Shown: in pieces, positions 17,204 through 32,468 of the stretch
How positions within the stretch are numbered: position 1 is the stretch's first letter
Layout of the letters: the number at the start of each line of letters is the position of its first letter
Assembly: GCA_001821395.1 (NCBI GenBank)
Contig: MHLM01000001.1
Coordinates: forward strand, 32,001-96,000
Direction: 5' to 3'
DNA length: 64,000 bases
Source of the DNA: Candidatus Lloydbacteria bacterium RIFCSPHIGHO2_02_FULL_50_18
GTDB taxonomy: Bacteria > Patescibacteriota > Minisyncoccia > Phycocordibacterales > UBA6899
Notes under the pieces: generated by a model
What the model was told of the DNA's origin: nothing
Database searches by the model: none
What the model saw: the letters and a program-made list of their open reading frames with translations, nothing else
Translations under genes and position numbers: made by a program

Positions 17204-17232
17204 TTGGCAACACGGACCAATCTGGTTATAAT
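17204..17232 (+). promoter_or_regulatory. Sigma-70-like promoter (TTGGCA-17-TATAAT) for alaS; probably leaderless
   Basis: Near-consensus -35 and -10 boxes with a 17-bp spacer. The -10 box ends 7 nt before ATG 17240. Confidence 0.65.
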
Positions 17233-17239
17233 CCTATCC

Positions 17240-19090
17240 ATGCAAACTATGCTTTCGTCATCGGAGATCCGCTCTCGGTTTCTTCATTTTTTTAAACAGC
17301 GGGGTCATGCGATCATATCGAGTGCACCGCTCGTTCCGCTCAATGATCCGTCCGTGCTTTTTAATACCGCGGGAATGCAGCCATTGGTACCATATCTTTT
17401 GGGTGAGCCGCATCCGGCTGGGGTACGCATTGTCGACTCACAGAAATGTGTACGCACGGTTGATATTGATGAGATCGGAGATAATACACACGCAACTTTT
17501 TTTGAGATGCTCGGAAATTGGTCCCTCGGTGACTACTTTAAAAAAGAAGCGATCAATTGGAGCTATGAATTTCTCACCTCAAAGGAGGATGGTTTAGGAC
17601 TTGATCCGAACAGGCTTTACGTAACCGTCTTTGGTGGTAACCAGGATGCGCCGAAGGATACGGATGCGCATGCGACCTGGACGGAGCTATTTGCACGGGC
17701 CGGAATTAAGGGTGAACGCATCTACTATATGACCGCCGATGCAAGAGGCAAGGAGCCTAACTGGTGGAGCGCCGGGGATTCTGGCCCCTGCGGGCCGGAT
17801 AGTGAGATGTTCTACGACGTGACCGGAACGTTAGATCTTGGCATGACAAAAGAAGAATATATGGCCGCCGATGATAGGCAAGACATCGTCGAGATCTGGA
17901 ACGATGTCTTCATGGAATATCTGAAAAAAGACGGGAGTGTGGTAGGGAAATTGGAAAAACAAAACGTAGATACCGGAAGCGGTCTCGAGCGCGTAACAAT
18001 GGTCGCTCAGGGAAAGAACAACATCTTTGCAACGGATATGTTTTCAGATGTGATGGAATTCCTTAACGGCAGATCTCCGGAGGGAGTCATGAGAACAAAA
18101 CGTATCGTTGCCGATCATATTCGCACCGCGGTTTTCTTGATAGGGGACGGTGTCACTCCTTCAAATACGGACCAGGGCTATATTTTGCGTCGCCTTATTC
18201 GTAGGGCGGTACGCTTTGCCGACGACCTTGGTTTGGCTCAAAAAAAAGGTGAAACGCGAAGTGATCTTTCTGCCGTTGCCGACATGTTCATCAAAAAATA
18301 TTGCGACGTATATCCTGTGCTGCTCGAACATTCGCAGGCGATATTCACGGAGTTGGAAGAAGAGGAGAAGCGATTTCGTGAAACGCTCTCACGCGGGATG
18401 CGGGAATTTGAAAAGTTGGCGACAAAGGATATTTCCGGGGATGACGCGTTCACCTTATTTTCTTCGTATGGATTTCCGTTCGAGCTGACAAAAGAACTTG
18501 CCGATGAAAAGGGTGTCGTCGTCGATGAGCTCGGTTTTTCCGAGAACATGAAAAAACACCAATCGCTCTCGCGTGCAGGTTCTGAGCAAAAATTCAAAGG
18601 AGGACTTGCCGATGACTCTGTCGCAACCATTCGACTTCATACCGCTCATCACCTGCTTCTGCGCGCACTGCAGCTTGTTTTGGGCCCCGATGTGCATCAG
18701 CGCGGGTCAAATATCACTCAGGAACGCCTACGCATTGATTTCGCACACGGAACAAAGATGACTGACGAACAAAAAAAAGCAGTTGAAGATCTCGTGAATG
18801 AGAAGATTGTTGAAAACCTGCCGGTCATCAGAACCGAAATGAATCTTGGCGACGCTGAGCTGCTCGGAGCCGAACATGAGTTCGGAGCAAAATACCCTGA
18901 TCGAGTCTCAGTGTATTCCGTAGGACCAAAAGGTGCGACGCGTGAAGATCCTCAGTTTGACAAAAGATTTTCAATAGAATTCTGCGGAGGCCCACACGTG
19001 AATCGCACCGGAGAGTTGGGGAGGTTTAAAATATTAAAGGAGGAGGCCTCAAGTCAGGGCGTACGTAGAATAAAGGCAATACTCGAATAG
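17240..19090 (+). CDS. alaS: Alanyl-tRNA synthetase, short form lacking the C-terminal DHHA1/oligomerisation domain
   Basis: Class II catalytic core (SAPLVPLNDPSVLFNTAGMQP…FFEMLGNWSLGDYFK) and an editing-domain HxxxH…C motif (HTAHHLLL…FCGGPHV). Only 617 aa. Confidence 0.9.
   Translation: MQTMLSSSEIRSRFLHFFKQRGHAIISSAPLVPLNDPSVLFNTAGMQPLVPYLLGEPHPAGVRIVDSQKCVRTVDIDEIGDNTHATFFEMLGNWSLGDYFKKEAINWSYEFLTSKEDGLGLDPNRLYVTVFGGNQDAPKDTDAHATWTELFARAGIKGERIYYMTADARGKEPNWWSAGDSGPCGPDSEMFYDVTGTLDLGMTKEEYMAADDRQDIVEIWNDVFMEYLKKDGSVVGKLEKQNVDTGSGLERVTMVAQGKNNIFATDMFSDVMEFLNGRSPEGVMRTKRIVADHIRTAVFLIGDGVTPSNTDQGYILRRLIRRAVRFADDLGLAQKKGETRSDLSAVADMFIKKYCDVYPVLLEHSQAIFTELEEEEKRFRETLSRGMREFEKLATKDISGDDAFTLFSSYGFPFELTKELADEKGVVVDELGFSENMKKHQSLSRAGSEQKFKGGLADDSVATIRLHTAHHLLLRALQLVLGPDVHQRGSNITQERLRIDFAHGTKMTDEQKKAVEDLVNEKIVENLPVIRTEMNLGDAELLGAEHEFGAKYPDRVSVYSVGPKGATREDPQFDKRFSIEFCGGPHVNRTGELGRFKILKEEASSQGVRRIKAILE
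19044..19090 (+). repeat. Copy 1 of a direct repeat, covering the last 16 alaS codons
   Basis: Pairs with 19154-19200. Confidence 0.8.
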
Positions 19091-19116
19091 AAAGTTGCGC
19101 GCGAAGCGCTTGCGTG

Positions 19117-19140
19117 AAGTTCATTCCCATGAACTTTTTG
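19117..19140 (+). terminator. Rho-independent terminator after alaS
   Basis: Hairpin aagttcat-tccc-atgaactt followed by tttgag. Confidence 0.7.
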
Positions 19141-19153
19141 AGCCAGAGAGAAG

Positions 19154-19200
19154 AGGCAAGTAGTCAGGGTGTACGCAGAATAAAGGCCATACTCGAATAA
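19154..19200 (+). repeat. Copy 2 of the direct repeat (diverged duplicate of the alaS 3' end)
   Basis: 41 of 47 nt match copy 1. All differences are synonymous, so both copies encode EEASSQGVRRIKAILE-stop. Confidence 0.8.
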
Positions 19201-19270
19201 AAGCTAGCGAACCAAAGTCGGCGCGTGAGGTAAATACCCACAGTAGTACGAGTATTCTTTGTGTCAGGCG

Positions 19271-19279
19271 TGGTATAAT
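19271..19279 (+). promoter_or_regulatory. Extended -10 (TGgTATAAT) upstream of the actin-like ATPase gene
   Basis: The box ends 6 nt before ATG 19286. Confidence 0.6.
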
Positions 19280-19285
19280 TTTCTC

Positions 19286-20482
19286 ATGTCGCTATTTCGC
19301 AGTAATAACAAAAACGGGCAGCACTTCATCATTATTTTCGACATTGGAAGCGCTTCGATTGGCGGTGCATTTGTAAGTATCGATTCGACTCGCACACCCG
19401 AGATCATTTTTTCTATACGTAAAGATATCCCATTTCAGGAAAAACTGAGTTTTGAGCGTTTTTTGGCCTCGATGATAACAACGTTAAAAGAGATGTTTGA
19501 GGTCATGCAAAAGGCTGGTGGGGGAGTAAAAGTAGATCAGGCATTCTGCATCCTTGCGTCGCCTTGGTATGCCTCTCAAACAAGACTCGTGCACTACAAT
19601 CAACCGACTCCATTCTTGGTCACCGAGAAGGGTCTCTCAAAGCTCATTCAAAAAGAGATCAGGCTGTTCAGGGACTCAAAGTTGTTTGAACACGCAAGTA
19701 TCGACAATGTGCTCCCCGAGATCATGGAATCAAAAAGTATCCAGATCAAACTTAACGGATATGAAGTGAGCGATCCCTACGGCAAGCGCGCATCGGAGCT
19801 GGAGATCGCTTTGTACATCAGCATGATCCCTTCAAATATCTTTTCATCGATCAGGGGTGCCATCACGAAATTTTGGCATTTACCCGATGTGCATTTTTCA
19901 TCATTTTCTTTGACTGCTTTTGATACCATTCGCGGCATCTTCGTCGACGAATCAAGTTTTTTGTTCATGGATATCTCAGGAGAAGTGACCGACATTTCGC
20001 TTGCGAGGGACAATGTGCTGCTCGAATCCATTTCGTTCCCCGCAGGAAAGAACATGCTTATTCGCGGGATCATCAAGGGGATGCACTCGACACCGACGGC
20101 GGCGGCTTCTGAAATGAAACTTTATTTGGAGGGAAAGTCCACACACGAGCATGCGAAGCAGATCGAGGAGATCCTCAGTGCGGAAACAAAAGAATGGAGG
20201 ATATTCTTTGAAGACGCCCTTGCTCAATTCGCATCAGAATTTCCAATTCCGAGAACAATCTTTTATACTGCTGATGATGATGTCACAAAGTGGTTCGAGG
20301 GTGCGATCCGTGAGGCAAATTTTATGCGTTTTTCACAAGAGGAAGGGCAATTCTTGGTACGTTCGCTCGGCAATGCATTCTTAAGCAAGTTCATTCAAGT
20401 GCTTGAACCTGACTTTCAAGACCCATTTTTGGCGATCGAGACGATATTTGCGAATAAGGTTACTACATTATCAAAAAAATAA
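19286..20482 (+). CDS. Actin-like ATPase (FtsA/PilM-like ASKHA fold), hypothetical
   Basis: Phosphate-1 motif (FIIIFDIGSASIGG), a second-domain motif (FMDISGEVTDISLA) and …ISFPAGKNMLIRGI. It cannot be assigned to FtsA or PilM. Confidence 0.6.
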   Translation: MSLFRSNNKNGQHFIIIFDIGSASIGGAFVSIDSTRTPEIIFSIRKDIPFQEKLSFERFLASMITTLKEMFEVMQKAGGGVKVDQAFCILASPWYASQTRLVHYNQPTPFLVTEKGLSKLIQKEIRLFRDSKLFEHASIDNVLPEIMESKSIQIKLNGYEVSDPYGKRASELEIALYISMIPSNIFSSIRGAITKFWHLPDVHFSSFSLTAFDTIRGIFVDESSFLFMDISGEVTDISLARDNVLLESISFPAGKNMLIRGIIKGMHSTPTAAASEMKLYLEGKSTHEHAKQIEEILSAETKEWRIFFEDALAQFASEFPIPRTIFYTADDDVTKWFEGAIREANFMRFSQEEGQFLVRSLGNAFLSKFIQVLEPDFQDPFLAIETIFANKVTTLSKK

Positions 20483-29225: not shown

Positions 29226-29254
29226 TTGTCAAACATCGTCGATATCTGTATAAT
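29226..29254 (+). promoter_or_regulatory. Promoter TTGTCA-17-TATAAT for dnaJ and the downstream operon; near-leaderless
   Basis: The -10 box ends 8 nt before ATG 29263. A weak hairpin plus T-run follows dnaK at about 29170-29195. Confidence 0.65.
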
Positions 29255-29262
29255 GCTCCCGT

Positions 29263-31437: not shown

Positions 31438-32463
31438 ATGAATTTTCATATGGCACAAAAGATGAACACCGCGGAATTCCCCGATCTCGGCACATTGGAA
31501 GAGCAGGTACTGTTTGCATCGCATTATGCCGTTCGCGCTCCATCGACTCACAATTCGCAACCCTGGCTTTTCCGGATCGGGGCTAATACCGTCGAGGTCC
31601 ACGCAGACTGGGCAAAGAAATTACCCTATGGCGACAAGGACGGCAGAGATATGTGCATCAGCGTCGGCGCATGCATTGAACATACAAGGGTGGCATTCTC
31701 ATATTTTGGGATGCTTGAGGGTCTTGTCGTAAATGAAGCGGTCGTGCTTTCGGATAAAAAGCCGATCGCGATATTCATGGTCCATCGCTCGACGGGGACA
31801 GACGAGACATTGCTTCAGACCATATGTGCGATCGAAGGTCGCTTCAACGCACGAGGACCATTCCTCAAAAAAGAGATCCCCCACGCATTGTTACGCGGCA
31901 TTGAGGAGGCGAGCGAGCCGGGTATATCTTTTGCGATACTTACCGAACATGCGGACATAATGAGATTCGCAGACCTTACTGGAGAGGGAATGCGGGTGGC
32001 ACATCGTGTGCCTGAGTTTCGGGGCGAGATCGCAAAGTGGATGATCAATAATTACTCAAAGAAAAAGGAGGGTATACCCGGGTATACGATGCTTGCCCCG
32101 GGACTGCTATCGCTTATTCTTCCCTCACTCATCGGGAGATTCAACCTCGGGGGAGTTCTCTCAAAGCTCAACCATCTTTCCATTGCTTCTTCGTCAGGAG
32201 TGATCATATTTTCCTCTAAAGACTCACCAAGCAGCTGGGTGCATGTGGGGATGCTATTTGCGAGAATGTCGCTTTCACTCAACGTCGAAAACATTCGCAC
32301 CTCGGTCTATGTTGCCTCGATCGAAATGCCCGACATACGCAGTCGGTTAAAGGAGCTCTTGCCGACCGATGAAATGCCACAATTTGCTTGTGCGTTCGGT
32401 TATCCGAAAGTTACCCTGCGCCAATCTCCTCGCCATGAACCTAAGGATCGTATGATACAATAG
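31438..32463 (+). CDS. Nitroreductase-superfamily protein, probably of the Acg-like 340-aa type (putative FMN-dependent oxidoreductase)
   Basis: RAPSTHNSQPWLF motif and a conserved C-terminal region (…FACAFGYPK). It lies 3 nt after the dehydrogenase gene. Confidence 0.7.
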   Translation: MNFHMAQKMNTAEFPDLGTLEEQVLFASHYAVRAPSTHNSQPWLFRIGANTVEVHADWAKKLPYGDKDGRDMCISVGACIEHTRVAFSYFGMLEGLVVNEAVVLSDKKPIAIFMVHRSTGTDETLLQTICAIEGRFNARGPFLKKEIPHALLRGIEEASEPGISFAILTEHADIMRFADLTGEGMRVAHRVPEFRGEIAKWMINNYSKKKEGIPGYTMLAPGLLSLILPSLIGRFNLGGVLSKLNHLSIASSSGVIIFSSKDSPSSWVHVGMLFARMSLSLNVENIRTSVYVASIEMPDIRSRLKELLPTDEMPQFACAFGYPKVTLRQSPRHEPKDRMIQ

Positions 32464-32468
32464 TTACG

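Follow-up and report, generated by a model that had tools for sequence, protein, structure and literature searches.

The window analysed here is a 64,000-nt stretch of the genome of Candidatus Lloydbacteria bacterium RIFCSPHIGHO2_02_FULL_50_18 (contig MHLM01000001.1), which carries alaS, the gene for a short-form alanyl-tRNA synthetase (AlaRS). The 3′ end of this gene is present twice. The functional end, copy 1, comprises the last 17 alaS codons with the stop counted (GAG GAG GCC TCA AGT CAG GGC GTA CGT AGA ATA AAG GCA ATA CTC GAA TAG), while copy 2 begins 110 nt after the start of copy 1 and 59 nt past the alaS stop, on the same strand (GAA GAG GCA AGT AGT CAG GGT GTA CGC AGA ATA AAG GCC ATA CTC GAA TAA). 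Both translate to EEASSQGVRRIKAILE*. An earlier note on this DNA had reported that the end of alaS recurs 110 bp downstream, and the recurrence was found at the place it gave (19040–19090 and 19150–19200). The repeat is 51 nt long, however, not the 47 nt of the note, and it contains 9 nucleotide differences instead of 6, with 8 of these lying within the note's own 47 nt. The differences affect seven codons, six sense codons and the stop (GAG/GAA, GCC/GCA, TCA/AGT, GGC/GGT, CGT/CGC, GCA/GCC and TAG/TAA, copy 1 given first). As the note had claimed, every difference is synonymous (9/9), the TCA/AGT serine switch included; seven are at third positions and the other two complete the serine codon switch.

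The likeness of the two copies was evaluated against shuffled sequences and simulated decay. Their local-alignment score is 30.5, compared with 7.2 ± 1.0 (maximum 12.5) in 2000 shuffles. The synonymous share of the single substitutions possible in this stretch is 22%, the probability that six random substitutions are all synonymous is 9 × 10−5, and nine random substitutions were all synonymous in 0 of 300,000 trials (P < 3 × 10−6 under neutrality). A chance match and neutral decay are thus excluded as the origin of the pair, and the argument of the note that neutral decay should not preserve the peptide is upheld by the simulation. Upstream of 19040 and 19150 the likeness between the copies breaks off abruptly. 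Downstream, the flanks GCGTGAAGTTCATTCCCA and GCGTGAGGTAAATACCCA match at 14 of 18 positions and lie at nearly the same offset past each stop, but with p ~ 0.075 for the score alone the kinship of the flanks, which the note had taken as given, is only weakly supported. Tandem Repeats Finder did not call the pair, because the copies are too diverged, and the codon-usage comparison proposed in the note could be carried out but did not discriminate between them (log-likelihood −21.7 versus −22.1).

The repeat is not an assembly artefact, a concern that the note had raised. The exact 398-aa protein encoded downstream of the repeat is present on 16 public contigs. In seven contigs from six samples (ENA ERZ27254752, ERZ27254846, ERZ27254745 and ERZ978281; Logan SRR3989338 and SRR2090155), six with the exact 398-aa protein and one with a 99%-identical protein, the alaS end, spacer, copy 2 and flank are base for base as in the window. 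The ENA ERZ27254846 contig, from the same strain, differs from the window at another alaS position: a G→T change (L084:1326–1328, corresponding to window 18986–18988) turns TGC GGA of the FCGG motif into TGC TGA, giving a premature stop in the editing domain, 34 codons ahead of the normal end. This may be a sequencing error or a true variant in an essential gene.

Relatives of the window were collected through a protein index and exact-protein look-ups, with AlaRS identities to the window of 90% for L166, 84% for L167, and 75% for L168–170 and L173–176; L172 was reached via the downstream gene. Homologues of the window AlaRS were found at 100–60% identity, and the GTDB species representatives and JGI metagenomes held no AlaRS closer than 60%. 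Both L167 and L172 have a single alaS tail, followed within ~15 nt by the hairpin motif TAAATACCCACAG and then by the promoter of the next gene, which is the context of copy 2. Relative to TAAATACCCACAG, therefore, it is copy 2 that holds the position of the functional end of the single-copy relatives. The motif is the 5′ arm of an ancestral post-alaS hairpin. This hairpin folds strongly in L167 (z = −2.5) and also occurs in L168, but in the window it has degraded to a weak fold (z = 0.2). The 59-nt spacer between the copies contains a different hairpin, GAAGUUCAU-UCCC-AUGAACUUU at 19116–19137, with 9 bp followed by a U-run, which in RNA folds looks like a working alaS terminator; the placement of copy 2 beyond the alaS terminator, as the note had it, is plausible on this account. 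Neither single-copy relative, L167 or L172, has a counterpart of the spacer, and no spacer homology was found across lineages apart from a weak match between the window spacer and an insert in L166 (p = 0.03). No known RNA family (Rfam) and no unusually stable structure was found at the repeat.

The remaining relatives vary at this point. L173–176 have a single tail and an extra 122-aa gene downstream. L168–170 have a second tail (AASSQGVRRIKAVLE*) that lies 124 nt after the first, directly ahead of the hairpin motif, and reads GCC AGC AGT CAG GGT GTG CGG AGA ATT AAA GCA GTA CTC GAA TAG (ASSQGVRRIKAVLE*). This tail differs from the functional tail of the same contigs in 10 codons, nine of them synonymous and one an I/V change, and it differs from copy 2 of the window at 9 of 45 nt, 8 of these at third positions. 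L166 has an insert of ~135 nt after the alaS stop, of which only the last ~45 nt, the native flank, are in common with the window. The differing ~113 nt of the L166 insert (L166:2478–2590) contain an 8-bp perfect inverted repeat, TTTCTCAG...CTGAGAAA, and share with the window spacer only TGAA(C)TTTTGAG(A)CCA. A decayed copy 2 could not be detected there, the best candidate match (GGGTGT-CG--GAAT.AAG) being equalled in 96 of 500 shuffles.

Table 1. Features of the alaS 3′ region (window positions).
Feature	Position	Strand	Description
alaS	17240..19090	+	Short-form alanyl-tRNA synthetase, 616 aa from ATG 17240; open reading frame (ORF) list
Tract divergent from L166	18000..19200 (approximate bounds)	+	From alaS codon ~255 through copy 1, spacer and copy 2
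Copy 1	19040..19090	+	Functional last 16 alaS codons + TAG; putative incoming foreign-allele tail
59-nt spacer	19091..19149	+	Presumed to have arrived with copy 1; hairpin + U-run from RNA folds
28-aa mechanical ORF holding copy 2	19114..19200	+	GTG 19114, internal ATG 19129; ORF list
Copy 2	19150..19200	+	Orphan alaS tail EEASSQGVRRIKAILE + TAA; frame +2 relative to alaS; putative native relic
Native alaS downstream flank	19201..19268	+	Holds conserved motif TAAATACCCACAG (19231–19243); alignment with L166, L167 and L168
Promoter and start of 398-aa gene	19271..19288	+	Extended −10 promoter TGGTATAAT (19271–19279) + ATG 19286; invariant in window, L166, L167 and L168

The alaS segment next to the repeat also has a history unlike that of its surroundings. 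In a sliding comparison with L166, nucleotide identity is ~90% in the flanks, falls to 61–83% from ~18000 to ~19200, and recovers right after copy 2, with the flank contiguous with copy 2 being 87–91% identical. At fourfold-degenerate sites the identity to L166 is 69% in the Sua5 gene, 72.5% in alaS codons 1–250, 42.9% in alaS codons 251–616, 71.7% in hyp398 and 69.7% in hyp534, and the difference between the two parts of alaS is significant (Fisher p = 2.4 × 10−6). Because these are silent sites, the lower identity is a matter not of weaker constraint but of a different history, which identifies this segment as a recombination tract. The codon alignment also shows that 75 nt directly ahead of copy 1 (~18955–19030) form an island with 96% identity to L166. 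Copy 1 matches the L166 alaS end at 44/51 positions (86%), and copy 2 does so at 42/51. The L166 contig has evidently also been altered in its alaS 3′ region. A similar, although weaker and noisier, pattern was seen for L168 against L167, with fourfold-site identity of 38% in alaS codons 101–610 versus 59–60% in alaS codons 1–100 and hyp398.

The clearest information on which tail is native came from a distant, Staskawiczbacteria-like lineage, L116 (AlaRS 50% identical to the window), the only further second-tail case in a scan of all fetched loci. Its second tail follows 114 nt after the first, in the same frame as alaS, and differs synonymously in nearly every codon. Two single-copy relatives, L177 and L178, have an AlaRS 85% identical to that of L116, and their functional end matches L116 copy 2 at 58 of 63 nt (92%) but L116 copy 1 at only 41 of 63 (65%). 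Taken in blocks of 10 codons, L116 and L177 are 77–93% identical across the 50 codons that end in ...GGG CAT TTT, whereas from the first codon of L116 copy 1 onward nearly all codons differ. The C-terminal AlaRS peptide of most members of the L116 clade is also that of L116 copy 2. Copy 2 of L116 is thus directly identified as the native tail, and a 114-nt foreign piece, consisting of a tail, its stop and 51 nt of flank, is inserted in register just upstream of it. The small size of this foreign piece (~114 nt) and its exact register give the event the look of a short insertion of tail plus flank, not necessarily of a long 3′-end replacement. A contig from ENA sample ERZ1426829, encoding the L116 relative P0242 (AlaRS 85%), has a gap of 221 nt between alaS and the next gene, compared with 24–29 nt in its sister contigs, and this gap may contain another tail insertion.

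Taken with these cases, it is probable that copy 2 and the decayed terminator behind it are the native alaS end of the window, and that copy 1 with the 59 nt that follow it is a foreign tail inserted in register upstream. Copy 2 is most likely the native tail here on the basis of its position and by analogy with L116, and on the same basis we infer that copy 1 is the incoming one. The proposal of the note that the two copies are the ends of different alaS alleles, joined by a past recombination that replaced the 3′ end, is supported by the tract against L166, the position of the end in single-copy relatives, and L116. The note had suggested alignment to related alaS ends as a check; by such comparison L167 and L172 end where copy 2 lies, and in the parallel lineage L116 copy 2 matches the end of L177 and L178.

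The event may be pictured as follows. A fragment of a diverged but related alaS allele would have recombined in register immediately upstream of the native tail, bringing in the last ~17 codons of the donor, the stop, and ~59 nt of downstream flank with a terminator hairpin. alaS would since then end at the foreign copy 1 and terminate at the foreign hairpin, and the native tail and its decayed hairpin, the old alaS 3′ end and terminator, would have been left as an untranslated orphan. This would fit the condition of the two hairpins, the one in the copy 1 flank looking functional with its U-run and the ancestral one after copy 2 being degraded. Homology in the conserved region just upstream (FCGGPHV...G.F) would have anchored the exchange, in which the incoming DNA would supply a tail and ~50–80 nt of flank, with a non-homologous joint at the start of the native tail, where the junction ...CCAGAGA|GAAGAGG is purine-rich. 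Our best guess for the joining is a one-ended homologous invasion by homeologous DNA completed by an illegitimate or end-joining junction, that is, homology-facilitated illegitimate recombination. Alternatively, given the exact register in L116, a break could have been repaired by short copying from a foreign template and then end-joined.

Such an origin accounts for the silent character of the differences. The C-terminal motif KEEA(SS/VA)QG(V/I)RRIKA(V/I)LE is almost invariant in 120 family members (60–100% identity), so that functional alleles differ here only synonymously, and the purely silent differences between the two tails of the window would stem from their separate evolution as ends of working AlaRS genes, while their non-coding flanks would have diverged freely. 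At the site of the serine switch the fetched functional genes have S, V or I, rarely A or C; an AGY codon is used by 25 of the 95 functional genes with serine (26%) and TCN is also used. Given this frequency of AGY, the TCA/AGT switch is normal between alleles. At silent sites the divergence from L166 corresponds to ~0.2 substitutions per neutral site in each lineage, and copy 2 as a non-coding relic as old as the split from L166 would be expected to carry several non-synonymous changes; it has none, and the event must be much younger. When 120 family proteins were compared by their N and C halves, none emerged as a candidate for the donor allele.

Several observations weigh against this reading. 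No single-copy relative closer than L166 was found, so that the identity of the native copy in the window relies on position and analogy, and copy 2 is not closer than copy 1 to the functional end of L166. The 96%-identical island separates the 1.1-kb diverged tract from the 110-nt insert, which may be separate events. L166 has its own insert of ~135 nt but no significant copy 2, and one or both lineages must therefore have been hit. The remnants, at 45, 51 and 63 nt, and the spacings, at 110–124 nt, are of near-equal size, which random illegitimate joints do not predict. Finally, an AGY serine codon is common to the orphans of the window and L168, although six functional ends of the clade all lack it, and together with their differences being almost entirely at third positions, this could reflect selection on copy 2, although the point is weak when AGY is used in 26% of functional genes.

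Of the alternatives, the likeliest, though still unlikely, is a two-step route to the same outcome. Here a tandem duplication of ~110 nt across the alaS stop would have come first, and unit 1 would later have been overwritten by homologous recombination with a related allele, giving rise to the synonymous differences. The first step would be harmless, since the first copy keeps the stop, and a precedent exists in the clade. In L173 (2580–2730), and also in L174, L175 and L176, an IS200/IS605-type Y1 transposase (Y1_Tnp) gene lies just upstream of alaS, and its last 14 codons, stop and flank are perfectly repeated in tandem, in what is simply a recent duplication that spans a stop codon. At ~100 nt and 100% identity it is in the right size class when set beside the 110, 114 and 124 nt of the alaS tails. 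Through the terminator and as far as TTTG.G.CAG, the two units of the window look collinear, and homologous exchange within alaS is evident. The route is countered by the position of the foreign patch, which starts exactly at the first codon of copy 1 in L116 and within ~10 nt of it in the window, whereas an independent homologous patch has no reason to begin at a duplication boundary. The right-hand crossover would, moreover, need homology in a ~50-nt flank that barely aligns.

It is very unlikely that copy 2 is under selection at present, either as a micro-ORF that is translated (with a length of 28 or 23 aa in the window and of 17 aa in L168) or as another element needing the C-terminal peptide of AlaRS. 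The frame and stop are intact in all three lineages, starts are available in the window (GTG 19114 and ATG 19129) and in L168 (ATG), and the window and L168 copies show the third-position bias and shared AGY codon described above. The open frame of the L116 copy 2, however, lacks any ATG, GTG or TTG, that copy is 92% identical to the working gene end of a relative, and AGY is common at that site in functional alleles. A second tail is absent from L167, L172, L173–176 and L177 and is not detectable in L166, and the repeat has neither an Rfam match nor an unusual fold. No −10 box or Shine–Dalgarno motif was found ahead of GTG 19114 or ATG 19129, and the latter is buried in the 3′ arm of the spacer terminator hairpin. 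The 28-aa ORF is thus probably not expressed. Readthrough, frameshifting or bypassing that would join copy 2 to alaS was considered separately and rejected: a TGA lies nine codons past the TAG, and the frame relative to alaS is +2 in the window, +1 in L168 and 0 in L116, leaving no recoding route.

Slightly less probable again is an attL/attR-type scar, left by an integrative element that targeted the alaS 3′ end, carried a replacement tail and has since been deleted. The model is the prophage e14 in icd of Escherichia coli. The signature at alaS is that of icd and its pseudogene icdC in E. coli K-12, where our comparison found 12 differences over 165 nt, 11 of them at third positions, with 2 conservative amino acid changes; the window pair has 9 differences in 51 nt and 0 amino acid changes, and in both pairs nearly all differences are silent. 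At icd, with e14 (and phage 21), as would be the case at alaS, an intact gene has a foreign-derived tail and the displaced native tail remains behind it on the same strand. A site-specific process would also suit the finding of such remnants, similar in size, at one gene in three lineages. But the E. coli copies are separated by a 15.2-kb prophage with integrase and excisionase and are joined site-specifically, whereas only 59 nt separate the copies of the window (59–79 nt across the lineages) and no recombinase is present, the genes called around alaS including no integrase. The remnants begin at different points in the three lineages, 14 (L168), 16 (window) and 20 (L116) codons ahead of the stop, and the spacers are unrelated between lineages. 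No tail pair with a larger insert was found in 180 loci or elsewhere in the 64-kb window, and a search of 2.9 million viral contigs from IMG/VR yielded no orphan alaS tail.

There is next to no chance that the pair is an assembly artefact or strain chimera, a neutral duplicate that kept its peptide by luck, or the template and variable repeats of a diversity-generating retroelement (DGR), even though the genome was recovered from a metagenome, these phyla commonly carry DGRs and a DGR repeat lies downstream of the 3′ end of its gene: De Bruijn chimeras do not make tandem diverged copies; the neutral case fails on its probability (P < 3 × 10−6), on the non-random codon positions of the differences and on comparison with the true neutral case, Y1_Tnp, which is 100% identical; and a DGR is opposed by the differences falling at adenines in only 4 of 9 cases (copy 2 as template) or 2 of 9 (copy 1), and by their never changing the protein, the opposite of DGR action. 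No reverse transcriptase was found among the called genes around alaS, although the whole window was not scanned with Pfam.

The insertion of a foreign tail ahead of the native one has its closest counterparts in the Rhs, CdiA and type VI secretion system (T6SS) effector loci, where, according to PMC5361080 (and Jackson et al. 2009, PMC2935791, cited there), C-terminal displacement leaves orphan 3′ ends and is ascribed to homology-facilitated illegitimate recombination. In those loci a homology anchor in the conserved 5′ part lets a new 3′ end in, the old end stays downstream as a truncated orphan, and such events recur at the same locus, all of which resembles alaS. The displaced 3′ ends there are differing toxins with their immunity genes and the displacement is adaptive, whereas in the window both tails encode the same housekeeping peptide, there is no gain at the protein level and the insert is ~110 nt. 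Homology-facilitated illegitimate recombination itself is known from natural transformation (de Vries & Wackernagel 2002, Prudhomme et al. 2002 and Meier & Wackernagel 2003, as cited in PMC5361080; PMC3240628). It combines a one-sided homologous anchor with an illegitimate joint, as proposed for the window, and it can trap short foreign segments and make small insertions or duplications at the border of homology. Its experimental demonstration comes from Acinetobacter, Pseudomonas, Streptococcus and E. coli, not from Patescibacteria, and it does not predict what L116 shows, an illegitimate joint in exact register with the beginning of the foreign tract.

The second-tail architecture recurs in two other Patescibacteria lineages, those of L168 and L116. 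These are two cases in ~160 other alaS lineages, compared with one plain duplication among the non-alaS ORFs of a set of 1554 ORFs of at least 150 aa, and alaS, given how the sample was chosen, is only marginally enriched relative to other genes. The sole unusual aspect of the locus is this possible recurrence, with three and perhaps four events of nearly equal size at the same gene end. We regard it as quite improbable that the alaS tail is a hot spot in Patescibacteria, at which a site-directed process inserts a foreign tail and terminator cassette of ~110–125 nt in register, 14–20 codons before the stop. Such a process might start with a nuclease cut in the KEEA..GVRRIKA coding sequence, with repair by short copying from a homeologous allele whose synonymous changes give resistance. 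If true, this would be a homing-like drive on the end of a housekeeping gene that leaves no element behind. A recurrence at alaS beyond that expected from sampling would point to an undescribed site-preferring process, which is at present only a possibility.

Other features of the region bear on how its genes are read. The genes near alaS encode PLD-like, AA kinase, Sua5, hyp398, hyp534, IF-1 and ribosomal proteins. The alaS product lacks the C-Ala domain and ends directly after the editing domain, and the identical gene in L081 has the Pfam domains tRNA-synt_2c and tRNA_SAD. Public gene calls start alaS 36 nt further upstream (628 aa), and a −10-like box, GTTATAAT, lies 7 nt ahead of ATG 17240. 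The 6-nt gap between the promoter and the ATG of the 398-aa gene suggests a leaderless mRNA, and the same promoter marks the right limit for any rearrangement. More generally, several window genes have a TATAAT-like box ending 6–10 nt ahead of the ATG (e.g. at 17222–17239, 19271–19285, 29240–29262 and 32445–32468), and no Shine–Dalgarno motif was found ahead of any of the 37 genes inspected in this genome, which suggests that leaderless mRNAs are widespread in it. A promoter and terminator consensus scan gave no useful match at this locus, because the promoters here lack a −35 element.

The neighbourhood of alaS varies within this clade. A 120-aa gene lies between the AA-kinase and Sua5 genes in L167 (1553–1915) and L168 (2560–2925), and a response-regulator gene lies between Sua5 and alaS (L167:2513–2914 and L168:3522–3941); both are absent from the window. 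L173–176 have the Y1 transposase gene upstream of alaS and the 122-aa ORF downstream of it. Several of the AlaRS relatives P0042–P0053 and P0060 (~70% identity) lack the usual stop after ...AVLE and have 4–11 extra residues (ESTMM, ESMMMQIHDRPR, EKHLQ), so that in some lineages the gene end has also been changed by loss of the stop codon.

The repeat is thus most likely a scar of a known kind, an allele replacement that left an orphan 3′ end, and not a new functional element. In annotating the region, the second tail should be marked as a fragment of a pseudogene, and no gene should be called from the 28-aa ORF. Read as such a scar, the locus records, cleanly and in datable form, that diverged lineages of uncultivated Patescibacteria with small genomes have recombined within an essential gene. 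It indicates that Patescibacteria exchange gene segments across roughly genus-level divergence and that such exchange can use a non-homologous joint. An aminoacyl-tRNA synthetase can accordingly be mosaic on scales from ~100 nt to 1 kb, which matters for phylogenies built on alaS or on concatenated markers and for strain typing.

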